DNA of 32,000 bases from Telmatocola sphagniphila (GCF_018398935.1 NZ_CP074694.1:3180001-3212000), one strand, 5' to 3'. Positions 9,315 through 30,774 are shown, counted from the stretch's first letter. The notes: a model not told the origin generated them from the sequence alone. Made by a program: numbers and translations.

Positions 9315-10235
9315 TCAGGAAGTCCGGGCCTTGGCTCGAGGATCCAGTCGCTGATGCAGGAATTTCGCCAGCACCGCATCCAGGGGATCGCTCGTCTTGA
9401 GCAGTGTGTAGTCGATACCCCGTTTTGTACAACCCTGTCGCATCTCGGTCAGGTAAATGTTCAACTCTTCCAGGTAGCCTTCCCTCAGAGCTTTCGGGTC
9501 GCAGAAAAGGTTGGGAAGTTCTTCCATCCCTTCGAAGCGAGTCATGCCGTTGAAGGGAAAGTTCAATTCATCATCGTCCAGCAGATGAAACAGCATGACG
9601 TCCTGCTTGCGCAGGCGAAGCATATCCAACCCCTTCAGCAGCGGTTCGCGATCCGTCAGACAGTCGGAAATCACCGCCACGATGCCACGCTGATGAGTAG
9701 CTTCCGCGACTCGGTTGAGGATCTTCAACATGTCGGTTTTATCGCGAGGCTTGGAGACATGCATCGTCTGGCAAATCGCCTCCAGATGTTTCTGAGAAGC
9801 TCGGGGCGGCACGACGGCACGGACTTCGGAATCGAAAGTCGTAATTCCAACGGAATCCTGCTGGCGGATCAGAAGATACGCGATGCAGGCCGCGGCGGTG
9901 CAGGCATATTCGTATTTGTTGAGATTGCCAGCCCCATAGTGCATCGATTCCGAGACATCGAGTACGAGTTGGCAGCGCAGATTGGTTTCGGCTTCGAACT
10001 GCTTGATGTAAAAGCGGTCGGTCTTAGACCAGACTTTCCAGTCGAGATGCCGGATGTCATCGCCGCGCACGTACTCGCGGTGCTGGACGAAATCGACCGA
10101 ATGTCCGAAGAACTTCGATCGATGCATGCCGTTGATGAATCCTTCGACGACCTGGGCGGCCTGTAACTCGAGATGGGCGATCTTCGAGATGGTGCGAGGA
10201 TCGAGAAATCGACGGGGATCTTCTTTATTCGCCAT
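9315..10235 (-). CDS. DUF58 domain protein (the usual partner of MoxR ATPases)
   Basis: The ORF is 306 codons with an ATG start. It carries the signature HREYVRGDDIRHLDWKVWSKTDRFYIKQFE, characteristic of DUF58, and sits directly downstream of the MoxR gene. Confidence 0.95.
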   Translation of the reverse strand: MANKEDPRRFLDPRTISKIAHLELQAAQVVEGFINGMHRSKFFGHSVDFVQHREYVRGDDIRHLDWKVWSKTDRFYIKQFEAETNLRCQLVLDVSESMHYGAGNLNKYEYACTAAACIAYLLIRQQDSVGITTFDSEVRAVVPPRASQKHLEAICQTMHVSKPRDKTDMLKILNRVAEATHQRGIVAVISDCLTDREPLLKGLDMLRLRKQDVMLFHLLDDDELNFPFNGMTRFEGMEELPNLFCDPKALREGYLEELNIYLTEMRQGCTKRGIDYTLLKTSDPLDAVLAKFLHQRLDPRAKARTS

Positions 10236-10301
10236 GTGTACCCGAAGGTTGACGCAGCCAAACAGCTATTCGTGGAATGCCGATAGAGGCCGCGGGGTCG
10301 A

Positions 10302-11357
10302 TTACGCAAAAATCTTTTTGAACCGCTCGTCCTTTTGCAGTTCGCCTTCCCGGCTGGGGGTCTCGGCAATGAGCTTTTCGACGACCACATCGGGAGTGAT
10401 GCCTTCGGAAGCGGCCGTGAAGTTCGTCAGAACGCGGTGCCGGAGTACCGGTTTGGCGAGGGCCTGAATATCTTCGACCGTCGCGTGTGAACGGCCATAG
10501 AGCAGCGCCCGAGCCTTGGCTCCCAGGATCATGAACTGCGCGGCACGTGGACCTGCCCCCCAGGACAACCAATCCTTGGCGAACTTGGGAATGCCCGGCT
10601 CGGTGACGCGCGTCTGCCGGATCAAAGCCAGGGTGTACTGAATCACGTGATCGGTCACCGGTACCTTGCGGACTACCGTCTGCAGTTCCATAATCTGCTC
10701 GCCGGTCAGCACCGCACTCGGTTCATCCATGGCCAGCGCGGTCGTGCGCTTGGCAATTTCGAATTCTTCATCGTAGGTCGGGTACTTCACGAAGACCTTG
10801 AACATGAAGCGGTCCTGTTGCGCTTCGGGCAGCGGGTAGGTCCCTTCCTGTTCGATGGGGTTCTGGGTAGCAAGTACGAAGAAGGGATTGGGTAGCCGAT
10901 GGCGGGTTCGGCCGACCGTGACTTGCCGTTCCTGCATGGCTTCCAGCAAGGCTGCCTGAGTTTTGGGCGGCGTACGGTTAATTTCGTCCGCCAGAATCAC
11001 GTTGGCGAACAACGGGCCGGAGAGGAACTTGAATTCGCGGGAGCCGGTCGTGCGATTTTCCTCGATCACTTCCGTTCCCGTGATGTCCGAAGGCATCAAG
11101 TCGGGCGTAAATTGGATGCGGCTGAAATCGAGCGAAATACAGCGTGCCAGAGTGGCGATCATCAAGGTCTTGGCCAGACCCGGCACCCCTTCGAGGATAC
11201 AGTGGCCGCGGCTGAACATGGCGATCAGCAACTCTTCGATTACCGATTCCTGACCGACGATCACGCGACCCAACTGCCGTTTAATCTCCTTGAAGGCGAC
11301 TTGCAGCTTCTGCATCGCCTCGACATCATTGCTTGCCAATTCATTAAGCTCTGACAT
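10302..11357 (-). CDS. MoxR-family AAA+ ATPase
   Basis: Walker A-like [10 protein letters not shown] and Walker B ILADEINR are present, and the length is typical of MoxR. I prefer the ATG at 11357 (MSELNEL...) because the longer ORF-track start at 11402 is a TTG. That TTG start remains a possible alternative. Confidence 0.95.
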
Positions 11358-11403
11358 GAATCGTTCTCGGTTAGGATGGAATTTCTGATGAGTGTGCGAC
11401 AAA

Positions 11404-12498
11404 TCATCTTTGATAAATCGGTAGGGTGGCCTTATCCAATTGCAGAATAGTCAGGTTCACGGTTGTCGTGAATACATTGCCGATGTAACCCGAACTCCAG
11501 CTACCGTCGTTCGACTGGCCCGCTTTCAAATAATCAAACATGGCCTCTTTATATTTGGTCCAGGACAATTGGTCGTCTTTTTTCGATCCGGGGAACAATC
11601 TCTCGTAACCATCGTCCCCCAGAATGTAAACGGCCTGGGCGAAGTAGTAACTCTGGTACTCGTCGTGGGACAGTCGCCCTTTGCCCACGGGAATGCTCTC
11701 TTTGCAGTATTTGATCCATTTCTTGGCATAGTCGGACGAGTAATCCCCCGAGCTGAAGGCACAAGACACCGCCGCGGCGGTCAGGGCGGGTCGCTCCTGT
11801 CCGCTAACCGCGCTCCCCGTGGCTAGACTATAGATGATGCCACCGCGAGAGGTCGTGCAGTCTTTAAGGTATTTAACGGCTTTATCGATAATCGACTTGG
11901 GAACCACGATACCGGCATTTCTGGCGGCTCGTAGGCCTTGGAGTTGGGTGATGGTCACGCTGCCTTCGTCGAAGTTTCCCCCTTCGCTCGCCGAAACATA
12001 ACCCCAGCCGCCGCGATCGGTCTGCGCTTTACCGCAGTACTCCACGGCCTTCGTCAGCATGCGTTCCAGGTCTTTACGTCGGCGTTCGTCTTCTTCTTCA
12101 CCATAAACGCTCGCCAGAAACAACAGGCCGAAGCCATGCCCGTACATGTATCGGGAGGATTCCGTGGGATTATTCGGGTTTCCCAAAAGTCCGGAAGGCT
12201 GCGATCGCTTCATGAACCATTCCACGGCCCGCCGCAAATTAGGACTGTATTTCCCTTCCCGCAGCGTGCTGCCTTCCATGAGAAAGCACATCCCGGCTAA
12301 GGCGGTCATGGTGGTCGGGTACTGCCCGCCGTTTGCTTCCCAGTTGCCTTCCCCTTTGCTTTGAGTGCTCGCCAGCCACTTCAAGCCGCGGTCGATCATC
12401 GCCTGTTGTTCGGCTTTGATCTCTTCGGCTCGGACCGCGATGGGTCCGAGACAAAATACGGCTAGAAATCCTACGGTGATGGAACGGATTGGAAACAC
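11404..12498 (-). CDS. Secreted prenyltransferase/squalene-oxidase-repeat (alpha/alpha-toroid) protein
   Basis: The ORF is 364 codons with a GTG start preceded by AGGAGAGG. It has a signal-peptide-like N-terminus ([16 protein letters not shown]). Repeated motifs of terpenoid-cyclase/prenyltransferase-like toroids are present ([28 protein letters not shown]). Confidence 0.85.
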
Positions 12499-18931: not shown

Positions 18932-19005
18932 GCACCCGTAGCACAATTGGATAGTGCGTAGCCCTCCGAAGGCTAAGGTTACAGGTTCGACTCCTGTCGG
19001 GTGCA
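18932..19005 (+). tRNA. tRNA-Arg (anticodon CCG), no encoded CCA
   Basis: I folded the cloverleaf by hand. The acceptor stem pairs GCACCCG with CGGGTGC, and the D stem pairs GCAC with GTGC. The anticodon stem pairs TAGCC with GGCTA, with loop CTCCGAA giving anticodon CCG. The variable loop is 5 nt, the T arm is ACAGG-TTCGACT-CCTGT, and the discriminator is A. Total length is 74 nt. Confidence 0.95.
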
Positions 19006-19847
19006 GATTCTTAATTCTTGCCCAATCGACACTTGCGTCGATTACAATTCAAAAATTAGAATCCAGATCTACACCCTCCGGGTAAAATTACACCCGACGC
19101 AGTTCAAACAAGATGATTCCTCAGAAAAATTCCACAAATAAATAGTTTACTTATTAAGTGAAGCAGACTTACTTTGGTAGAGACAAGTCGAAGGTCATCA
19201 AACTTACTATGTTCGGCGGATCGCAGATCTCATTCGCCAGATCAAGAAATTGATTGGCCCCGGCTCGGCACTCTGTAGTTGAAGTTGACTGATGCCGCTT
19301 CATCGCCCAGGAGCAGTTTCAATCGGATGATCCTCATCGGATTAGGACTCCCAATTTAAAATCTTATCTAAGTGCATCGCCCTTTACACGCGAAATCATG
19401 ACTTCGCAGAATTGAAACACTCGCAAGGTCACCCGGCCGCGCGGGCTGTGCTGGCGTTGTTTCAAGACTCCTGAGATTCGCAGGATTTACGCCGCTGGTT
19501 CTCCGGGCTGACATCGAGGCCCTTCCGCGAATGGTGGGCTGATGCGAGATCAACAACATGCAACCGATGCGCGGCCTGGCAGTGAAGAAAAGATAGCTGT
19601 TCTCGCGAGTCGAGCCGCTCGGGGCGAGCGTCTGTTTCATCCGGAGGATGAGAGGTTGTGATAAGCGAAGAACAAAATTTGAAGCCACCTATTTCGCGGG
19701 CCGCTCACGGTGGCCGCGGGTGGGGGAGCCGTCCGGGCGGGGGTCTGGGCGGCTCTTGTTTGCAGCACATTTATGGCGTTTTTTACAGTTCACTAATTAC
19801 AATGAGCAAGGAGTATCCAAACTGAATTCACTCAGAGAGCTTACTTT

Positions 19848-20789
19848 ATGTCCCCAGGAAGTGCTGCATACGATATAACTCGAGCTGTTGCCGATTCGAC
19901 CTACGAAAAATTTGGCACACTGGCGAAATACCTCGGTAAGCCGATCGAAGAGTGGCTGCAACCTTGGCTCATGCATCGTAAAGTGAAGTACGAGATGAGA
20001 GATAAAATCATAGCGGAAGCGACGAAAGAACAGATTGCTGTAATGCGGCAGGATCACGAATGGAATCTCGAAGATCGCGCTTCCGAGAGATGCCGCAGAG
20101 AGGAAATTCGTAGACAGCAAAATATTGAAAATATTGTTGTTAGTAGTGTCGAACAAATCCCTTCGGATCAAACGCCAATACAAATCAACGATGATTGGTC
20201 GGCGCAATTTATCGAAAATTGCAAAGATATTTCTGATGAAACGATGCAAAAATTGTGGAGCAAAATATTGGCGGGCGAGCTTAGTAAGCCAGGATCGTGC
20301 TCATTGAAAACAATGGCAATATTAAGGACCATGAACAAAAGCGATGCCGAACTATTTTCAACGCTAAAATCATTCGTTTGGGAATCAGCAGAAAGTCAAT
20401 ACATAGTAATTAATTTTGAAAAAATGCGTATATACTCTAACAACGCAATCTTCCAAAATTTTGATTATAATTCTCTAATCGATTTAGAACATTTCGGACT
20501 AATCCACTTGAGTACTCCAGCTACAATTATCCAATCTTATAACGAATTTAGTTCCGTAAGTTGGAGATACTTTGACAAATCGATCAAGCTGACAAAACGC
20601 AATAGCACTGGCAATCCAACTGGTTCAAATTTGAAAATCGACGTAGGAGAAGTTCATTTAACGAAAAGCGGCAAAGATTTGATGAGGCTTGTAAGTGGGA
20701 ATCCAATGGATTCCTATATTGAAGCGGCAGTAAAATATTTTCAAAGTAGATTTCTCAATGTCCAATTTGAGCCACAGTCGTCGCCTTGA
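19848..20789 (+). CDS. DUF2806-like protein
   Basis: The ORF is 313 codons with an ATG start in very AT-rich DNA. The central segment DDWSAQFIENCKDISDETMQKLWSKILAGELSKPGSCSLKTMAILRTMNKSDAELF matches my memory of the conserved DUF2806 core (DW..F......S.E.MQ.LWAKILAGE...PGS.SLRTL). Confidence 0.8.
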   Translation: MSPGSAAYDITRAVADSTYEKFGTLAKYLGKPIEEWLQPWLMHRKVKYEMRDKIIAEATKEQIAVMRQDHEWNLEDRASERCRREEIRRQQNIENIVVSSVEQIPSDQTPIQINDDWSAQFIENCKDISDETMQKLWSKILAGELSKPGSCSLKTMAILRTMNKSDAELFSTLKSFVWESAESQYIVINFEKMRIYSNNAIFQNFDYNSLIDLEHFGLIHLSTPATIIQSYNEFSSVSWRYFDKSIKLTKRNSTGNPTGSNLKIDVGEVHLTKSGKDLMRLVSGNPMDSYIEAAVKYFQSRFLNVQFEPQSSP

Positions 20790-21013: not shown

Positions 21014-21532
21014 TTACTTCTTCGAAATTCCGAGCCATTCATGAATCAATGGTGAAAACACGCTCGCTACAGCAGTTATCGTAGCCAGAATTCCAAAAGT
21101 AATTGCGACAACTCTATTCCAATAGTTCTGTTCTTTGTTGAACTCCTCTTGTGCTTTAGCCATCTTTGCATTGAAGGATTTTTGGTCTTCAAGTTGAGCA
21201 GCGGCCAGTTCAATTTGTTTTCTTTCCCATTGAACTCGGACATGCTCTTTTGCTGTGAAACCAGACATGTAGGGGGTGAACTCTTGGCAGTCTCGCTCTT
21301 GGTTCAAAATAAACTTGACGATACCACGGCGATCTAAATCTTTAGGTGCGGAATATTTCTCGCTATCCAGATACACCATGTTTTTAAAACATTCCAAACT
21401 TAAGCCTGTGTCCCCAGCCTTACGGTCTCGAAGACTGAATTCCAATTCGACATCTCGTTCTGAATTGTACAAATGACAGAACCCACATTCACCACACTTC
21501 ACCTTGCGATTCTGTTCTTTTTCTCCGCTCAT
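21014..21532 (-). CDS. Cysteine-cluster / coiled-coil / C-terminal TM-anchored protein (intact paralog, P1)
   Basis: The ATG at 21532 is preceded by GGAG 7 nt upstream; the ORF-track start at 21553 is a TTG. The product is 172 aa. It has N-terminal KCGECGFCH, two further conserved Cys (LECFKN, RDCQEF), a charged helical segment, and the C-terminal hydrophobic helix VVAITFGILATITAVASVF. It is homologous to the split gene upstream. Confidence 0.8.
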   Translation of the reverse strand: MSGEKEQNRKVKCGECGFCHLYNSERDVELEFSLRDRKAGDTGLSLECFKNMVYLDSEKYSAPKDLDRRGIVKFILNQERDCQEFTPYMSGFTAKEHVRVQWERKQIELAAAQLEDQKSFNAKMAKAQEEFNKEQNYWNRVVAITFGILATITAVASVFSPLIHEWLGISKK

Positions 21533-21549
21533 CGAGGTCTCCGTTTCTA

Positions 21550-21715
21550 TCAAGACGGATCTTTAGGATGTTCCACTATTTCTAAGGGTGAGCGCGATGG
21601 TTTCGGTTTCTCAGCAGTACTATTTGACGTGCTGATTGCGGCAATAATGCTCGCAATACTGGCGAACAATGCAAGAGTGCCAAATACTGCGGTCACCACT
21701 CGACTCAAAAAATTC
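21550..21715 (-). pseudogene. C-terminal fragment of the IS-disrupted paralog (P2)
   Basis: It encodes ...NFLSRVVTAVFGTLALFASIASIIAAISTS..., which aligns to the P1 C-terminus (NYWNRVVAITFGILATITAVASVFS). It abuts the IS left end at 21716. Joining it to 23140..23590 and removing one 8-bp duplication gives 609 nt, an in-frame 202-aa ORF. Confidence 0.85.
21708..21715. repeat. Target-site duplication, left copy (AAAAATTC)
   Basis: This 8-bp sequence is identical to 23140..23147 and directly flanks the IS inverted repeats. An 8-bp duplication is the size characteristic of the ISL3 family. Confidence 0.9.
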
Positions 21716-21739
21716 GGCTCTTCCGTTTTTAGGCGCAAC
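21716..21739 (+). repeat. IS left terminal inverted repeat
   Basis: See the IS entry. It matches the reverse complement of 23116-23139 at 20 of 24 positions. Confidence 0.85.
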
Positions 21740-21810
21740 TCTCGGCGAATCGGTCATTTTGGGATAGATTGCAATTGAGAGTACCCTTTTCCTGGTTCAC
21801 GGAAGCGCCG

Positions 21811-23126
21811 ATGACGACGACTACCATTGCCATAGACATGGACGTCCCTGCCGGAGTGAGCGTTGGCGAATACGAACGCATCGACGGGGGCCACGCCTTT
21901 CACGTGAGTTGGCAGTTGCCCGACAATCTTTGTTGCGAGACTTGCCGGCGTGAGTCTCCGCTTCAATTGGTGGAGAAGAACAAGTTTCTGAGCATCCGCG
22001 ATCTGGATTTGTGGGGTAAGCCGAGCTTTTTCGTGTACCAGGAGGTGTATCACCGCTGCCCGTCGTGCGGTCACCGTCAATCGCTGTTGCCGCCGTTCAA
22101 GCGTCGGGATGTGAAATATACGTTTCGCTTCGAGGAGCAGGTGCTGGTCAGTCTGATCGGGAGCACAGCCGAAGACGTGGCGGTGCGTTTGGGGATCGCC
22201 GCGGAAACGGTGGAGCGAATCGTCAAGAACCGGATAGAGGACGCCAAGGCGAAGCAGATCGATCCCCAGCGGAAGATCGAGCGTTTGGGTCTGGATGAGA
22301 TCAGCCTGCGTAAGGGGCATAAGGGATATGCGACAATATTGACGGACCTGACGAATGCGGAGCGTCCGGAGATTCTGGCTCTGTCCAAGGGTCGTGACGA
22401 AGCAGCGGGGCGAGCGTGTTTGGAGCGTTTGTCGGCCGAGCAACGGTCGGCGGTGCGTTGGCATCATACGGACATGAGCGCGGCGTATTTGAAGGCTTGC
22501 GGCGTGCATTTACCCAACAGCCAGTCGGTGATAGATCGCTTTCACGTCGCCAAGAAATTGGGTGAGGTGGCGGACGATCTGCGAAAAAAAACTATCGAGC
22601 CTACAAGCGAAGTTTGAGCGGGGAAGCCCGCAAGAAGCTGCGTTCTCAGATGCACGACTTCCGGCGTCGTCCCGAGGATTTGAAACCGGAGCAGGTCCAG
22701 GCCCTCGAGGATTTGTTCGAGAAGGTGCCTTCGTTGGGAACGATCTACCATCTGCGTTGGGAGGCGACCAAAATCTTCGATAGTGCCCCGAACCGAGCCG
22801 AAGCCTCGCGACTGTTGGAAGATTGGATCGTCCAGGCCCGCGAGACCGAGATGGATTGGGAGCCGTTCATCACGATGCTCAAGAATAACTGGGAGGGGAT
22901 CTTAGCCTACTTCGAGGAACGCAAAAGCAGCGGTCCGGTGGAAGGTCTCAATACCAAGATTCGGGTAGTGCTACGTCGGAGTTATGGAATTCAGAGTCTA
23001 ACTACGCTCTGGACGAGAGTACTCCTGGACGTGAATTGGGCTGCGAAAAAATTAGGGCCGACCATTGCAGAGATTCGCGGCTTCGTCAACCAGATACAGA
23101 AGCATTTCTCTGGATGCTACACCTAG
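21811..23126 (+). CDS. ISL3-family transposase, split into two frames at an A8 run (a -1 shift is needed for the full 438-aa product)
   Basis: The first frame is 21811..22617 and the second frame continues to 23126. A zinc-finger-like CCETC...CPSCGH is present. DDE-type motifs are GLDEISLRKGHKGYATILTDL, WHHTDMSAAYLKA and SGPVEGLNTKIRVVLRRSYG. The last of these lies in the downstream frame. Reading through the shift gives the continuous sequence ...DDLRKKNYRAYKRSLSGEARKKLRSQMH... Confidence 0.9.
22584..22591 (+). other. A8 homopolymer / A_AAA_AAA slippery heptamer at the transposase frame junction
   Basis: The sequence is cgAAAAAAAAct. In the upstream frame the codons are cga aaa aaa act, so A_AAA_AAA (22584-22590) lies in the register required for a -1 slip. 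An A9 or A6 run would be in frame. Confidence 0.7.
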
Positions 23127-23139
23127 AAACGGAAGAGCC
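23116..23139 (-). repeat. IS right terminal inverted repeat
   Basis: See the IS entry. The transposase stop codon (23124-23126) lies inside this repeat. Confidence 0.85.
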
Positions 23140-23147
23140 AAAAATTC
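23140..23147. repeat. Target-site duplication, right copy (AAAAATTC)
   Basis: It is identical to 21708..21715. Confidence 0.9.
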
Positions 23148-23590
23148 TGCCTTCTGTTGAACTCGATTTGCTTATCAACAAGTCCCTCATTGAACTCCCG
23201 CTGAGTCTTTTCTTTTTCTGCGTTCGCTCGCCTTTCTTCGGCAAGCAATTCCAAAGCCTCTCTTTTTCTCTGTTCCTCACGCTCAAAGGCGTCGTGCCCA
23301 CGTGGGCCATAACCTGGGATGTAGGAAAAAAATCCGGTGCATTTGCGCGGGTTGTTCAGGATGACTAGAACACGCATGTTTTGATCCCCTTTCAATCCCG
23401 ATTCGAGTGAGGTTTCCCTCTGGAGACCTGCAAGGCCCTTCATGCAATGAAGCCCGCATCCTTGAGCCAAATATCCTTTCTCTCTGTAGGGTTTAGTCAG
23501 TTCGTGATACTCTTGCTTTTCTGCATTATGCTGGCAGCAAAACCCACACTTCATGCACATGACATCAGGCACTTGCTTGACGGTACCCAT
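23140..23590 (-). pseudogene. N-terminal fragment of the IS-disrupted cysteine-cluster paralog (P2)
   Basis: The ATG at 23590 is preceded by GGAG 6 nt upstream, and this start aligns with the P1 start. The fragment contains CMKCGFCC, an exact CxxCGxCC pattern as in YkgJ-type cysteine-cluster domains. It also contains GLHCMKG and RKCTGF. As called (23123..23704), the ORF reads into the IS and ends at a stop inside the IS right repeat, adding the IS-derived tail WLFRF. Confidence 0.85.
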
Positions 23591-23696
23591 TATCGGCTCC
23601 GCTGACTGTAGGCATTTCAAGGGACTTCGAAGGTAATCATCAGAATTGTAAAGCGCCGGATATGTCTTGACCATCCTCGCTCGATCGCGCACAATC

Positions 23697-23717
23697 ATAC
23701 CCACTGGCAGTGGGTAT
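23697..23717. promoter_or_regulatory. Perfect 21-bp palindrome upstream of the P2/P1 gene pair
   Basis: The sequence is ATACCCACTG-G-CAGTGGGTAT, with 10-bp arms and no mismatches. It lies about 107-127 nt upstream of the P2 ATG. No T-tract follows on either strand, so an operator or structured-leader role is more plausible than a terminator. Confidence 0.4.
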
Positions 23718-23769
23718 TACCCAGTTTTCTCAATGTTTTTGATGCGATTTGCAACGGGCTGAAAAAAGG

Positions 23770-26111: not shown

Positions 26112-28244
26112 ATGTTTATGTCCTTTGCCAATCCGGTATTTCTTTACGGCTTGCCCGCCTTAGCAATCCCCGTCCTCATTCATTTTCTCAATCGCCGAAA
26201 ATTTGAAATTGTCGACTGGGGAGCCATGCAGTTCCTCCGCATCAGCGATGAGGTACGCCGGCGCAACCGGCTCGATCAACTACTGCTCCTGCTTTTGCGC
26301 ATGCTGATCCTGGCCCTTTTGCTGATTCTGCTGGCCGGCCCTTCTTTCAAAAGCCGTTGGTTGAGCCGTTTCGCCAAGCAACCCCGGCGCGATCTGGTTC
26401 TCATCGTCGATGGCTCCGGCAGCATGGCTCTGCAACAGAACAAACAATCACTTTTGGATCTAGCCCGGGGCAAAGCTCGAAAAATTCTCGAAGATTTCGG
26501 TAGCGACGATCGCTTTCAGGTATTGGTCGCCCGGGACGATGTCACTAATCTTTCGCTGCAATGGAACAACTCCTGGAATATCGTCGAAGGGCATCTGAAA
26601 AAGGAAATCCCGCACGGTTCCCTTAATATTGTCGCAGCTTATCAACAGGCCAGCGACCTGCTTAAAGGTTCGGTGGCCGAGAAACGGGAGATCCTATTCC
26701 TCACCGACGGCCAGAAACACTCGTGGCAGGAACCCAACCTGGTAGCTCGACTGAAGACCATACAGGAAGCGGCCGGGGAAAATGCCCCTCTTCTTCGGAT
26801 CGAGGATGTAGCGGCTCTGGACGCAGCGAAAATTGCCAATCTGGGTATTACCCGACTGAATACCCGGCGAACTATCGCCCTACCAAAGCAGGAAATCGCG
26901 TTCGAAGGCGAGATTCAGGCGACCAACAAAGAAGCGGCCAATTCCCACGTCCGGATTCTGGTTGATCATCGACCCATCGGCGAAGTCCAGGTGGAGAATC
27001 TCTCCCCCGGTAAAGCCAAGTTCCATTACACCCATCGCTTCGCAGACACCGGCAGCCATCTGATCGAATTTCGCCTCCCGGCGGATGAATATCCATCCGA
27101 CGACAACTACGAACTGGCCATTCGCGTCATTCCTCAAATTCATGTGCAGGTGATAGATCCGAAATTCCAGCTGAACGCCGAAGGAAATCCGTCGCTTATC
27201 GGGAGCCAGTTTCTTCTGGATGCCCTGGCCCCGATCAAAGACCCTTCCCCATTATTTGCGGTGGAGCGGTTGAAATCCGATACTCGTACCTCCCGTTCGG
27301 ATAGTTTGGGCAGTACGAGTGCGAAGGTTGAAATCCTCTTCGATCTACCCAGTCCGCCCCAGGCCGATCTGGTCCACTTCGTGCAAAATGGTAACGGCCT
27401 GCTGATTGCTCCCGGTGACGATTTCGATCCGAGGAGATGGCGGGAATCGGAACAGGGGCATGCATTACTGCCAGCCCATCCCATCAAAATTCTGGGGAGC
27501 GAAACCGACCTGACGACGGCGCCCAGAATCGACCCCAAGTCGCTCGTCCATCCGGTGATGCAACTCTTTGCCAAGAATAGCGAACTCCTCTCCGCCTATT
27601 TCCCCAAATACTGGGATCTCTCGACCGAAGGAATCGAATCTGCTCAGGTACTGGCCCGACTGACCAACGGTAAACCATTCCTGGTTGAGAAGAATCTGGG
27701 GCTGGGTAAAGTCCTGTTATGCGCCGTTCCCCTCGATAACCGCTGGCGAACCAATCTGACCGACCTCGGAGATTACGTTCGCCTGATGCACGAACTGGTT
27801 CTTCACCTGGGTAGCGAATCAGGTTTCGACAATAATCAGCCTGCAGCCAGTGGATTAACATTGCCGGAAAGAATCGCGGCCGATTCGCATATGGCCATCA
27901 CTATCCCCGGCGGTGAACCGATTCGCGATCGGATGCGGGAAATTCGCGGCAAATTGCGAAGCCTGACACTTCCCGGTATCTATTCGTTTCGCGAAGACAA
28001 CCAACCGTCGCAGTACGTGGTGCTGCAGGAGAATCGCGCCGAACACCTGCTGACCTACATGAACGAAGCAGATTGGGAACAACTGAAAAGCGCCCTGCCG
28101 AATAAATTGTTGCGCAATGAGGAGACGGCGGCAGGCGATACCAGTGCACAGAATCTCTTTTCGCTCCGGCCGATATTTCTGTTGTTGTTGATCCTGTTTT
28201 TATTCGGGGAAGCCTGGTTCGCCCGGCGGCATTCCATCGCTTAA
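26112..28244 (+). CDS. BatA N-terminal (double-TM) domain protein with a VWA domain (second copy)
   Basis: The N-terminus NPVFLYGLPALAIPVLIHFLNRRKFEIVDWGAMQFL parallels the 6488..9265 product. The MIDAS motif is LVLIVDGSGSM. A C-terminal TM segment is present (IFLLLLILFLFGEAWFARR). Confidence 0.9.
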   Translation: MFMSFANPVFLYGLPALAIPVLIHFLNRRKFEIVDWGAMQFLRISDEVRRRNRLDQLLLLLLRMLILALLLILLAGPSFKSRWLSRFAKQPRRDLVLIVDGSGSMALQQNKQSLLDLARGKARKILEDFGSDDRFQVLVARDDVTNLSLQWNNSWNIVEGHLKKEIPHGSLNIVAAYQQASDLLKGSVAEKREILFLTDGQKHSWQEPNLVARLKTIQEAAGENAPLLRIEDVAALDAAKIANLGITRLNTRRTIALPKQEIAFEGEIQATNKEAANSHVRILVDHRPIGEVQVENLSPGKAKFHYTHRFADTGSHLIEFRLPADEYPSDDNYELAIRVIPQIHVQVIDPKFQLNAEGNPSLIGSQFLLDALAPIKDPSPLFAVERLKSDTRTSRSDSLGSTSAKVEILFDLPSPPQADLVHFVQNGNGLLIAPGDDFDPRRWRESEQGHALLPAHPIKILGSETDLTTAPRIDPKSLVHPVMQLFAKNSELLSAYFPKYWDLSTEGIESAQVLARLTNGKPFLVEKNLGLGKVLLCAVPLDNRWRTNLTDLGDYVRLMHELVLHLGSESGFDNNQPAASGLTLPERIAADSHMAITIPGGEPIRDRMREIRGKLRSLTLPGIYSFREDNQPSQYVVLQENRAEHLLTYMNEADWEQLKSALPNKLLRNEETAAGDTSAQNLFSLRPIFLLLLILFLFGEAWFARRHSIA

Positions 28245-28254
28245 ATCGAGACTC

Positions 28255-30774
28255 ATGCACTCCATTCTGGCGAGTATCGAAGTTTCCCTCCAGCCAGTCG
28301 GCCGCTCCGACATGGCGGTCTGGCTGGCGCTGGCCGGGTTCGTCCTGATCGTTGGAATTCTCACTTTCTCGGTTCGACTGCTTCGGAAGCCGGAATTGAC
28401 TCTGGTCTCTCGAAACTCCGCTCGGATCCTGCTTCTGTTGCGCGGCGGCATCCTCGGATTACTGGTACTACTTCTGCTTTTTCAGCCGCAATTCCGCAAC
28501 GTGATTCAAGAGACTATTCCTTCGCACGTACTCGTTGCCCTCGACACCTCCGGAAGCATGAATTTCGCCGATGCTCAGATCTCCGATCGCGAAGCACTGG
28601 AATTAGCCGTGGCAGTGGGATTGAAGGTCCCCAACGCGAGCAGCGAGCAACTCCAGAACTGGTTGAAACAGTATACTTCGGGGAATATTCCCAACTCGGT
28701 CGAATACCGCAACGCTTTGAAAAGCATCCATGCCTCGAGCCGCGCGGCCATTGCCCAGGCGGTCCTGAAAGAGTCCCCCCTCCAGCTACTCAATCGGCTG
28801 AAGCAGGACCACGAAGTTCGCTCGACGCAATTTTCCGATCATCTGGAAGCGGGGGTCGATGCCAAAACCAATCGAGGCGAAACGAATATCAATTTGCCGC
28901 TACAAAAATCGCTGCGGGAAGCCAACAACGATCAGGAACGCTGCGTTGGCGTCGTGCTACTGACTGACGGAAGGCAGACCAGCAACGACAACCCTTTGAC
29001 TCTGGCCGCTGAGCTCAAATCCCGTGGGGTGCCGGTCTATCCGCTCGTCATTGGTTCGCCGACACCGATCCCCGATCTCTCGCTGACATTTGCCCGTGCC
29101 ATCCCCGCTGTGGCCTTTCAAAAATCGACGGTTCGCGTCGAGGTGAAAGTCCGAGCCTCCGAAATGCCGCGAGGTAAAATTCGTCTCGAACTGACTGGAA
29201 CTATCGGGGAAAAGAAACCGCGACTGGAGCATCTCCTCGATCACGCCGGCGGTACGCAGGAGTACGATTATATTTTTGAACTTCCAGGGGAGGAGCCGGG
29301 CTCTTTCGTCGGTGAAGTTCGGGTCGATTGGACCGGTCCGGAAAAGGAAGCAATTCTTAGCAATAATCAAATGCCGGTACGCTTCCAGGTCGTTCAGGAC
29401 AAGGCCCGCGTCTTATTCATTGATTCGGAGATGCGTTACGAGTCGCACTACCTTCAGACGGCCCTGCTCCGCGATGAGAGCATTCAACTGAAAACCATCC
29501 TGCTCAATCCGCCGCGCATCGGGGCCTTAACCGAAGAGGGGCTGAAGGAACAGGGCTACGCCGATACGAAAATCCCTGCCGATTTTGCCGAACTGATGAG
29601 CTACGATTGCCTGATCATCGGCGATGTCGATTTCCGGCAACTGGATCCCAAAACGAAAAACTGGCTCGAACGTTATCTGACGGAACGAGGCGGCACCGTG
29701 GTGTTAGTCGCTGGGAAAAAAGCGATGCCGATGGGCGCGCGGTCTTCGCTGGGGGAACCTATGGATCCCGTCCTGGAACGCATCCTTCCGATCATGGCCC
29801 CCCGCGAGATTCGCGACGAGGAAGGCTTCTCGATGCAGTTAACCAGCGAAGGTCAGCAGCGCGGCTACCTGCAGCTCGATAACGACATCCGGCGAAATGA
29901 CTTTCGCTGGCAGCAATTGCCGCGCAGCTATTGGGGAGTCGTGGGCAAATGCAAACCGAGCGCGATCTCGCTGGCCTACGTCATGCCCCGACTCGATCCG
30001 GCGGGCACCAATATCCCGAAACTCGACGAAATCCAACGTAACAATGCCATTCTGGTTCGACAGAACATAGGCTTCGGCAAAGTGCTGTTTCTGGGTATCG
30101 ATAGCACCTGGCGCTGGCGGTATCGCGAGGGGGATGCCACCCAATTTCGCTTCTGGGGACAATTAATTCGCTGGGCCGCCAGCGATCGACCGTTGAGTGC
30201 GGGAAACGAATTTCTGCGCTTTGGAGTTCGCGAACCGCTCGCCGGAACGGAGCAGCCGCCCGAGATCATCCTGCGTTTGACCGAGGTGACCCTCAAGCAG
30301 GCCAACATTACTCAGGTTCGGGTTCGAGTCAACAAAGCGGGTGAGAAATCGGAACTGAAAATCATCGATCTGAAGCAGCAGGCAGGAAATCCCCGCGAAT
30401 GGCGGGCGCCGGTGATCGACTTACCGGTCGGTAAGTTCGAGATCGAACCGCTGGTGCCGGAGTTGAATAGTTCTCTGGTTCAATCCGATGGCACGCCATT
30501 GAAATGCAGTTATGAAGTCTTCGCACCCATCCCCAAGGAGGACCGGGAATTGTCCGCTGACTTCGAACTGATGAAGACGCTGGCCGAGTCGACCGGCGGC
30601 AACGCCTTCTGGGCGAAGGATGCGGATCAACTTCCCGCACTCCTGAAAAATCTTTCGGCCACCCGGGAAACGGTTCAGACCTGGAACCTGGCCGATTCCT
30701 GGTGGCTCTTCGGTGTGATACTGTTCCTGCTCACAGTTGAATGGTCTCTCCGAAAGTGGCTCGGACTGGCTTGA
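28255..30774 (+). CDS. VWA-domain membrane protein (second BatB-like copy) with a GATase1-like segment and a C-terminal anchor
   Basis: The ATG lies 10 nt after the upstream stop. It has N-terminal TM helices and the MIDAS motif VLVALDTSGSM. The segment ARVLFIDSEMRYESHYL...YDCLIIGDVDF parallels the 3357..6443 product. The C-terminal tail WWLFGVILFLLTVEWSLRKWLGLA matches the paralog's tail. Confidence 0.9.
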   Translation: MHSILASIEVSLQPVGRSDMAVWLALAGFVLIVGILTFSVRLLRKPELTLVSRNSARILLLLRGGILGLLVLLLLFQPQFRNVIQETIPSHVLVALDTSGSMNFADAQISDREALELAVAVGLKVPNASSEQLQNWLKQYTSGNIPNSVEYRNALKSIHASSRAAIAQAVLKESPLQLLNRLKQDHEVRSTQFSDHLEAGVDAKTNRGETNINLPLQKSLREANNDQERCVGVVLLTDGRQTSNDNPLTLAAELKSRGVPVYPLVIGSPTPIPDLSLTFARAIPAVAFQKSTVRVEVKVRASEMPRGKIRLELTGTIGEKKPRLEHLLDHAGGTQEYDYIFELPGEEPGSFVGEVRVDWTGPEKEAILSNNQMPVRFQVVQDKARVLFIDSEMRYESHYLQTALLRDESIQLKTILLNPPRIGALTEEGLKEQGYADTKIPADFAELMSYDCLIIGDVDFRQLDPKTKNWLERYLTERGGTVVLVAGKKAMPMGARSSLGEPMDPVLERILPIMAPREIRDEEGFSMQLTSEGQQRGYLQLDNDIRRNDFRWQQLPRSYWGVVGKCKPSAISLAYVMPRLDPAGTNIPKLDEIQRNNAILVRQNIGFGKVLFLGIDSTWRWRYREGDATQFRFWGQLIRWAASDRPLSAGNEFLRFGVREPLAGTEQPPEIILRLTEVTLKQANITQVRVRVNKAGEKSELKIIDLKQQAGNPREWRAPVIDLPVGKFEIEPLVPELNSSLVQSDGTPLKCSYEVFAPIPKEDRELSADFELMKTLAESTGGNAFWAKDADQLPALLKNLSATRETVQTWNLADSWWLFGVILFLLTVEWSLRKWLGLA

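Follow-up and report, generated by a model that had tools for sequence, protein, structure and literature searches.

A predicted tail-anchored cysteine-histidine protein family carried by transposons, and its tandem gene pair in Telmatocola sphagniphila

A tandem gene pair and the insertion sequence that interrupts it

We analysed a stretch of 32,000 nucleotides (nt) from Telmatocola sphagniphila (GCF_018398935.1, NZ_CP074694.1:3180001-3212000; henceforth the window) and focused on two neighbouring minus-strand genes, P1 and P2. P1 (21014..21532, minus strand) is an intact open reading frame (ORF) of 172 amino acids (aa). It starts with the ATG at 21532, is preceded by a GGAG site 7 nt upstream and ends with the TAA at 21014, and its product matches NCBI entry KIH39_12705 of Telmatocola sphagniphila exactly. 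Family conservation and an AlphaFold2 (AF2) model, both described below, delimit an N-terminal domain with four cysteines and one histidine (Cys4-His) at aa 10-97 (21242..21505, minus), whose head residues are C13, C16, G17, R37, C48, R80, C82, G91 and H97. The domain is followed by a charged linker helix at aa 98-140 (21113..21241, minus) with two F-N units of an 11-residue (hendecad) repeat, marked by F120 and F131. A C-terminal transmembrane (TM) helix is predicted at about aa 141-163 (21044..21112, minus) from the Kyte-Doolittle profile, the best 19-residue window of which scores 2.29 and begins at aa 141. The last 9 aa form a tail after this helix (21017-21043, minus).

P2 starts with the ATG at 23590, with GGAG 6 nt upstream, and its reading frame is broken at 23147/21716 by an insertion sequence (IS) of the ISL3 family. 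The 5' part (23148..23590, minus) encodes aa 1-147 plus the first two bases of codon 148 and is annotated as the truncated 155-aa protein KIH39_12720. The 3' part (21550..21715, minus) supplies the last base of codon 148, aa 149-202 and the stop, and contains an N-F-L-S-R-V-V junction, the TM helix and a Pro-rich tail. When the IS and one copy of its target duplication are removed, a 202-aa P2 ORF is restored that ends at 21550, is colinear with P1 and reads R-Q-N-F-L-S-R-V-V across the repaired junction. The stop of the reconstructed gene lies 17 nt from the P1 ATG. The two proteins can be aligned from end to end; BLASTP gives 32% identity in 164 columns, with E 2e-19. P2 has every near-invariant residue of the family and P1 has all but Pro94, where it carries Ala. 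Judged by this alignment, P1 and P2 are tandem copies of a single gene that diverged long ago.

These results agree with a sequence-only reading of the window, which had proposed two clearly homologous minus-strand genes 17 nt apart, each with a GGAG ribosome-binding site and both with the same architecture. Every motif listed in that reading was also found: the N-terminal strings CGECGFCH in P1 and CMKCGFCC in P2, two further Cys, the ILN..R.C..F..Y..G.....H block, the charged helix, the N(Y/F)(W/L)xRVV junction and the C-terminal hydrophobic helix.

The element inside P2 is an ISL3-family insertion sequence of 1424 bp (21716..23139, plus strand), as identified by its transposase, its inverted repeats and its 8-bp target duplication. 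Its ends, GGCTCTTCCGTTT(T/C)TAGG, are inverted repeats alike at 17/18 positions. The target duplication AAAAATTC is perfect, with the left copy at 21708-21715 and the right copy at 23140-23147. The transposase matches PF01610 (DDE_Tnp_ISL3, E 8e-21 and 1e-25) as well as HTH_Tnp_ISL3, and is split into two overlapping frames (21769-22617 and 22614-23126). The frame break lies near 22614, downstream of an A8 run at about 22583-22590, and represents either an inactivating frameshift or a homopolymer assembly error; this ISL3 copy may be inactive. Because the insertion inactivates P2, only P1 can be functional.

The protein family, its head and its repeat stalk

We compared P1 and P2 with known protein families. 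There was no Pfam match at E<=1, PF03692 included, and matches in NCBIfam, PHROGs and PADLOC were at chance level or absent. Neither protein matched a PDB sequence, and a profile search of the PDB sequences was also empty. In word-indexed searches of 5.8 billion proteins, P1 and P2 retrieved only themselves, and a profile of 150 family sequences (see below) retrieved 8 matches only. A scan of genome contigs with the P1+P2 alignment gave no match and also missed the source genome. The earlier view that the two proteins fall outside any characterised family is thus upheld for Pfam, NCBIfam, PHROGs, PADLOC and PDB.

An exhaustive HMMER search with a P1+P2 profile against 1.84 billion cluster representatives recovered a family of at least 445 representatives at E<=1e-3, including 13 at E<=1e-10. 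The alignment, the conservation values and the library scans of the family reported here refer to the best 150 of these 445 representatives. These members are 130-305 aa long and almost all are colinear from the first Cys motif through the TM helix. In P1 numbering, the conserved positions are C13, C16 and G17 (98% each), R37 and C48 (99% each), R80 (94%), C82 (100%), G91 (93%), P94 (97%) and H97 (99%). The consensus of the N-terminal half reads V-K-C-x-x-C-G-F-L-x-x-R ... R-E-x-G ... P-x-C-F and continues as R-E-C-x-x-F-x-x-W-x-x-G-F-[ST]-P-K-E-H-x-E-M, so that the pattern C-x2-C-G ... R ... C ... R-x-C ... G-x-x-P-x-x-H is contained within an N-domain of ~85 aa. None of the 150 members has a meaningful Pfam, NCBIfam or PADLOC match, and none matches PF03692 at E<=0.01.

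The closest relative of P1 and P2 is P0003, a protein encoded on a 915-nt peat-metagenome contig (L107), with 37% identity to P2 and 33% to P1. Its N-terminal string, CLKCGFCC, has the same CxxCGxC(C/H) form as those of P1 and P2. The cysteine conservation anticipated from the sequence alone was found for C13, C16, C48 and C82, which are near-invariant, and did not extend to the third and fourth cysteines of the string, which occur only in P1, P2 and P0003. The third string position (position 19) is Leu in 84% of members, and the family signature is C-x2-C-G-[FYL]-L followed by two lone Cys and one His.

With the 150-sequence alignment, AF2 modelled P1 with a mean predicted local distance difference test (pLDDT) score of 94.6 and a predicted template modelling (pTM) score of 0.72. 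The head region reached a pLDDT of about 96-98 with this deep alignment. With the P1+P2 alignment alone, the mean pLDDT was 51 and that of the head about 33. The modelled head is a compact alpha/beta domain with strands at residues 10-12, 19-23, 28-31, 45-48 and 79-81 and helices at 34-39, 56-61 and 68-76, and it runs into a single uninterrupted helix spanning residues 94-166. A Foldseek search of the P1 model against PDB and BFVD gave nothing at E<=0.001, the best E values being 6 and 1.5, respectively.

A C-terminal TM-like segment is present in 143 of the 150 members. The linker between the conserved His and this segment has a median length of 57 aa (10th-90th percentile 34-78) and is rich in R (17%), E (16%) and Q (13%). 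Aromatic residues recur in it with a period of 11: their autocorrelation, about 10 in the background, rises to 124 at lag 11, 71 at lag 22 and 43 at lag 33. The 11-residue repeat has the consensus D-R-x-W-Q-x-x-Q, and about two thirds of the examined members have 2-6 units of it; the linkers of P1 and P2 each retain two diverged F-N units, with F120 and F131 of P1 spaced 11 residues apart. Past the TM helix, the tail has a median of 16 aa, contains 15% Pro and is unconserved. The coiled coil and tail anchor of the sequence-only reading therefore stand as a charged helix and a C-terminal TM segment; the helix itself is better called an R/E/Q-rich 11-residue-repeat helix.

The head has a median isoelectric point (pI) of 6.6, and this near-neutral value counts against a nucleic-acid-binding role. 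Because there is no signal peptide, because the segment before the TM helix is Arg-rich and because a presumed cysteine-metal domain would suit the cytoplasm, we infer an N-in, C-out topology, in which the protein would be tail-anchored in the inner membrane with its head in the cytoplasm. On these sequence features we describe a new family of predicted tail-anchored Cys4-His proteins, to which P1 and P2 both belong by their residue pattern and their helix and TM segment.

The family gene as cargo of insertion sequences

We assembled 105 family loci from species-representative genomes, metagenomes and look-ups, retrieving them via one conserved peptide, QGF[ST]PKEH. The hosts comprise Planctomycetota (Planctomycetaceae, Rubripirellula, Schlesneria), Nitrospira, Binatia and Chloroflexota (Dehalococcoidia, Chloroflexia, Thermoflexus). 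No family relatives were found on the viral contigs of IMG/VR or the plasmids of PLSDB. When the family hidden Markov model (HMM) was run over six-frame ORFs, each of the 105 homologous loci had one copy and none had a tandem pair; four apparent double loci are single genes split by frameshifts. The tandem pair of the window is therefore unique in this sample. It is lineage-specific, and the idea that pairing is a trait of the family is contradicted.

A transposase is encoded within 1.5 kb of the family gene in 37 of the 105 loci. It belongs to IS1 (PF03400) in 21 loci and to IS1595 in 16, the latter matching PF12762 and PF12760 with E about 1e-39. Gene and transposase converge at the IS1595-type loci, where they overlap by up to 61 nt or are separated by up to 256 nt. 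Inverted repeats alike at 20/20 positions bracket the gene and the transposase at L065, L066, L068, L092/93 and L096, and 18/20 repeats do so at L072, compared with a maximum of 16-17 of 20 in the shuffled null. These loci represent six independent IS1595-type elements of 1.6-1.9 kb. Perfect 8-bp duplications flank four of the six (L065, L066, L072 and L096; AAACTATG, CTTACGAG, GATTGAAC and CTAATTAG), and the homology between L072 and L078 already begins upstream of the family gene, at the left inverted repeat. Most of the repeats start with GG, and in most of them a TTGAC(A) box precedes the family gene by 40-65 nt. In the repeats of L065, L066, L068, L092 and L096, the TTGAC(A) hexamer faces inward at both ends, and one repeat could therefore supply a -35 box for the cargo and for the transposase.

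Among the IS1-type loci, L001 (8096-10714) has perfect 17-bp repeats, GGTAGTGATACCGATTG, around an extra ORF, a truncated transposase and the family gene, and the same GGTAGTGATACCGATTG repeat also occurs downstream of the family gene at L018. No target duplication was found around the L001 element. The extra ORF of L001 encodes 296 aa with a weak Hypoth_Ymh match, the IS1 transposase is truncated at its N-terminus and the end of the contig (2-466) carries another, partial IS1 copy. The whole looks like a rearranged or composite structure. The convergent IS1-type loci L007, L079, L094 and L102 showed no above-chance inverted repeats within 450 nt. Signs of decay were seen at several planctomycete loci (L023 2717-3242, L024 9720-10378, L017 8810-9840 and L018 9473-9855), where frameshifts or truncations affect the IS1 transposase as well as the family gene beside it. 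These loci look like decaying copies of one unit made of IS1 transposase and family gene.

A further arrangement was found at L104 (1760-4470), a 2.7-kb element with inverted repeats GGTTAAGTATA(C/A)TCGTGGTTGG that begin with GGTTAAGTA. It contains a 324-aa ORF without known function, a 342-aa transposase and the family gene. Read by eye, the transposase is IS6/IS240-like, which would make it the third transposase lineage associated with the family gene.

The gene is also found between inverted repeats without a transposase. Out of 62 loci with no nearby transposase, 9 have repeats alike at 17/20 positions or better around the family gene alone, forming cassettes of inverted repeat, gene and inverted repeat of 660-805 bp. 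Perfect 8-bp duplications flank five of eight cassettes (L070, L086, L057, L038 and L009), and one more has a 7/8 duplication. The intact L009 cassette with its duplication and a weak partial match, L026, come from the same Dehalococcoidales metagenome-assembled genome (CAZQRP01), and several copies per genome therefore occur.

We took a Pfam census of the 147 ORFs nearest to the family gene. Only transposase families recur in at least 3 of them, and no partner gene recurs. Each of the remaining families was seen no more than twice; most are housekeeping genes, which is what insertion at scattered sites would produce. In Planctomycetota, Chloroflexota, Nitrospirota and Binatia, the chromosomal locations of the elements are unrelated to one another. 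A defence-island context was considered as well and rejected, as the neighbours are mostly housekeeping singletons. The neighbourhood survey suggested by the sequence-only reading thus revealed a recurrent mobile context, provided by transposases, and neither pairs nor DUF2806 genes nor defence islands.

Most pairs with estimable dS, which have 57-88% protein identity, have ratios of nonsynonymous to synonymous substitution rates (dN/dS) of 0.10-0.25. Purifying selection is also evident in pairs without a nearby transposase, such as L043/L099 (dN/dS 0.19). One syntenic pair has a dN/dS of 0.49, and the value of 1.3 for a near-identical pair is uninformative. The cargo diverges faster than its carrier: linked transposases are 66-78% identical where the cargo proteins are 31-42% identical. 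The cargo proteins are not sorted by transposase class (0.51 vs 0.51 bits per residue). Strict co-divergence of cargo and transposase was tried and rejected, the Spearman coefficient being 0.06 overall, with 0.72 for IS1-type and 0.37 for IS1595-type loci. The placement of the gene inside inverted repeats, the associated transposases, the cassettes and the purifying selection together lead us to conclude that it is a promiscuous transposon cargo gene.

The copy in the window has a different setting. The pair sits in a low-GC islet (38% GC at 20-21 kb vs about 53% in the flanks), with a tRNA-Arg(CCG) gene (18932-19005) on one side and a dehydratase gene on the other. A DUF2806/TIGR03899-like gene (19848-20789, plus strand; PF10987, E 2e-40) occupies the part of the islet with the lowest GC (38%) and has a weak PHROG match (phrog_2232, 8e-7). 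The accessory setting proposed from the sequence alone, AT-rich, tRNA-adjacent, IS-hit and next to DUF2806, was recovered in full, with the tRNA-Arg, the GC of 38%, the ISL3 element and the PF10987 match all present. The recurrence of DUF2806 as a neighbour, which that reading had proposed to check, was not seen: no such gene lies near any of the 105 homologous loci, and the adjacency therefore looks incidental. Between the tRNA-Arg and the DUF2806 gene, ~850 nt (19006-19850) lack a convincing ORF and include a GC-rich segment at about 19400-19800; the longest ORFs there have no Pfam match. This interval could be what is left, after decay, of the element by which the islet arrived. No integrase turned up there, and a search of the islet borders for direct repeats or for an att repeat derived from the tRNA gave only chance-level 14-nt repeats. 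The flanking chromosomal genes encode radical SAM/SPASM, galactarate/altronate dehydratase-type, MoxR, DUF58 and VWA proteins. A set of MoxR AAA ATPase, DUF58 and VWA/double-TM 'Bat-like' genes is found on both sides of the islet (9315-12498, minus, and 26112-30774, plus); it is ordinary and unrelated to P1 and P2.

A leader and promoter region precedes P2 (23591..23739, minus). The P2 leader at 23621-23739 (minus) is 83% identical over 120 nt to positions 1-119 of contig L107. It contains a -35/-10-like site at 23673-23645 and a conserved 9-bp hairpin, UACCCACUG...CAGUGGGUA. A structured RNA leader before P2 was considered as a candidate and rejected (z -0.57, no covariation, no Rfam match). 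On L107, the 170 nt that follow P0003 contain no start of a second copy.

Proposed function, alternatives and known systems

Our preferred reading, to which we assign a probability of about 0.6, is that the family gene encodes an uncatalogued tail-anchored Cys4-His protein that elsewhere is transposon cargo and that likely acts alone at the membrane. The four cysteines would hold one structural metal, most likely Zn. The hendecad helix would be a stiff spacer, about 8 nm long at the median linker length, and this stalk would keep the head at a distance of roughly 5-12 nm from the membrane's inner face. The protein would then act alone as a membrane-tethered binding or sensing module, and a selective value to the host or to the carrier element would keep the gene as transposon cargo.

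Several observations weigh against this reading. Among the loci with at least 1.2 kb on both flanks, 18 of 44 have a transposase, and about 59% of the well-flanked homologous loci are thus without one. In the window, the best inverted repeat around P2-P1 is 14/18, compared with a shuffled mean of 12.9 and maximum of 15, and a tblastn search of the window with IS1 and IS1595 transposases gave nothing below E 0.09. The only transposase there is that of the unrelated ISL3 element in P2, and a mobile origin of the window copy is suggested, by analogy, only by its relatives. The subclade of P1 and P2 is under-sampled because neither protein matches QGF[ST]PKEH exactly, and its sole close relative lies on a 915-nt contig. 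Finally, the apparent novelty of the fold leans on the Foldseek comparison of a full-length predicted model that is dominated by the long helix.

A more specific version of the cargo reading is possible, and we offer it tentatively. The protein may be a self-contained transposon payload, with a metal-stabilised head of unseen fold and a hendecad stalk, that was captured repeatedly by at least three DDE-transposase lineages, is kept by their non-autonomous derivatives and serves the element itself rather than the host. Just as tentatively, the benefit to the element might lie in excluding rival elements or phages, or in coupling transposition to the membrane.

It is doubtful that the gene is a single-gene conflict module spread by transposons, in which the head would sense an invader and the stalk and TM helix would oligomerise and damage the membrane, resulting in abortive infection or exclusion. 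The sensor and TM architecture, the carriage by mobile elements and the faster divergence of cargo than of linked transposases would all suit such a module. The same can be said of the positional relative on L107, in which an 83%-identical leader precedes a protein of only 37% identity, and of the sporadic restriction-modification, HigB, Panacea, NYN and PIN neighbours. Yet none of the 150 members matches PADLOC (PADLOC-DB 2.0), the neighbour census shows housekeeping genes in place of defence islands and the close pairs, with dN/dS of 0.1-0.25, give no sign of positive selection. That nothing was found on IMG/VR contigs or in BFVD is neutral for a defence gene.

We consider it unlikely that the protein is an accessory of the transposon that, tethered to the membrane, regulates or assists the IS1/IS1595 transposase in controlling transposition or choosing targets. 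The position of the gene inside the inverted repeats, 40-65 nt from the repeat bearing TTGAC(A), with the same box facing the transposase, is what such a role would predict, as is the correlation of family and transposase divergences within the IS1-type group (rho 0.72). However, the gene partners three transposase families with its cargo proteins unsorted by class, transposase-less cassettes keep the ORF, copies without a nearby transposase are still under purifying selection (L043/L099 being an example) and the near-neutral head does not resemble a DNA-binding domain.

A host-beneficial metal or redox cargo is also improbable; the Cys4-His head would then serve at the membrane as a binder or sensor of a metal or an Fe-S cluster, an idea that the sequence-only reading had raised as speculation for the pair. 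It would account for the four near-invariant Cys and the near-invariant His, and it would suit the sediment, peat and groundwater habitats of the metagenomes, as judged from sample names only. The mer operons are a precedent for transposon-borne Cys-rich membrane proteins and lend this reading support by analogy. Against it, the gene stands alone, with no transporter, reductase or regulator as partner, the protein has no homology to known metal-handling families and the pair is not needed, because all other loci are single-copy.

A zinc-binding anti-sigma (ZAS-like) factor, whose cytoplasmic Zn domain would sequester a sigma factor at the membrane, is very improbable and largely excluded. The likeness to ZAS and zf-HC2 proteins lies in an N-terminal cytoplasmic Cys/His domain tethered by one TM helix with a short outside tail. 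The family differs in its motif, with H-x3-C-x2-C absent, and in that its genes lie inside transposons; none of the 150 members matches zf-HC2 or another anti-sigma Pfam model, and no sigma-factor domain appears among the 25 census families listed or in the window genes scanned with Pfam and NCBIfam. Least credible of all is the relationship raised by the sequence-only reading, a YkgJ-type (PF03692) Zn/Fe cysteine cluster fused to a coiled coil and a tail anchor, since PF03692 is matched by neither P1 and P2 nor the 150 members, and the likeness is confined to the CxxCGxC(C/H) strings of P1, P2 and P0003, of which the family keeps only C13 and C16, while the other two family Cys are lone, 30-35 aa apart, in a ligand pattern and architecture other than those of YkgJ.

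The cargo reading bears on how such loci are annotated. The family is a missing one, comprising hundreds of 50%-identity clusters in at least four phyla, and every member is annotated as 'hypothetical' by current pipelines. The novelty lies in the family, for which there is no model in Pfam, NCBIfam, PADLOC, PHROGs or PDB and no structural match in PDB or BFVD, in its stalk of repeats and in its repeated appearance as cargo that several transposase lineages have kept. Elements of this kind are mis-annotated as 'IS plus an unrelated neighbour', and they provide a natural system for asking why an insertion sequence carries and keeps a second gene. The window would record one such history, in which a cargo gene was duplicated in tandem and one copy was then knocked out by a different IS. 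Proteins of 140-220 aa and intact elements with perfect ends exist, and they make the family testable.

Helices of 11-residue repeats and charged single alpha-helices (ER/K motifs) are known kinds of structure. The family linker resembles them in its R/E/Q content, in the aromatic residue at every eleventh position and in being modelled as one continuous helix. To our knowledge, the D-R-x-W-Q-x-x-Q unit is not a described repeat.

IS passenger genes and mobile insertion cassettes (MICs) are already known as a kind of element, and the homologous loci belong with both by their inverted repeats and 8-bp duplications around the gene. Transporter IS (tIS) of the IS1595/IS1 superfamily are described as IS copies with a passenger gene (Siguier et al. 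2009, cited in PMC3129680). On that description, the homologous loci are alike in having gene and transposase between repeats that start with GG, in their 8-bp duplications and in transposases that match PF12762/PF12760 or PF03400. They differ in that three transposase families share a single, specific and uncatalogued ORF as their passenger, and the window copy differs in having neither the inverted repeats nor such a transposase. For the cassettes, the closer parallel is provided by MICs, of which MIC231 of Bacillus cereus, derived from IS231, is an example (De Palmenaer et al. 2004, cited in PMC3129680). This holds for the family cassettes, which likewise consist of repeats around one coding gene, without a transposase, and are flanked by perfect 8-bp duplications. 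They differ from MICs in IS family, hosts and cargo, and they would be mobilised in trans.

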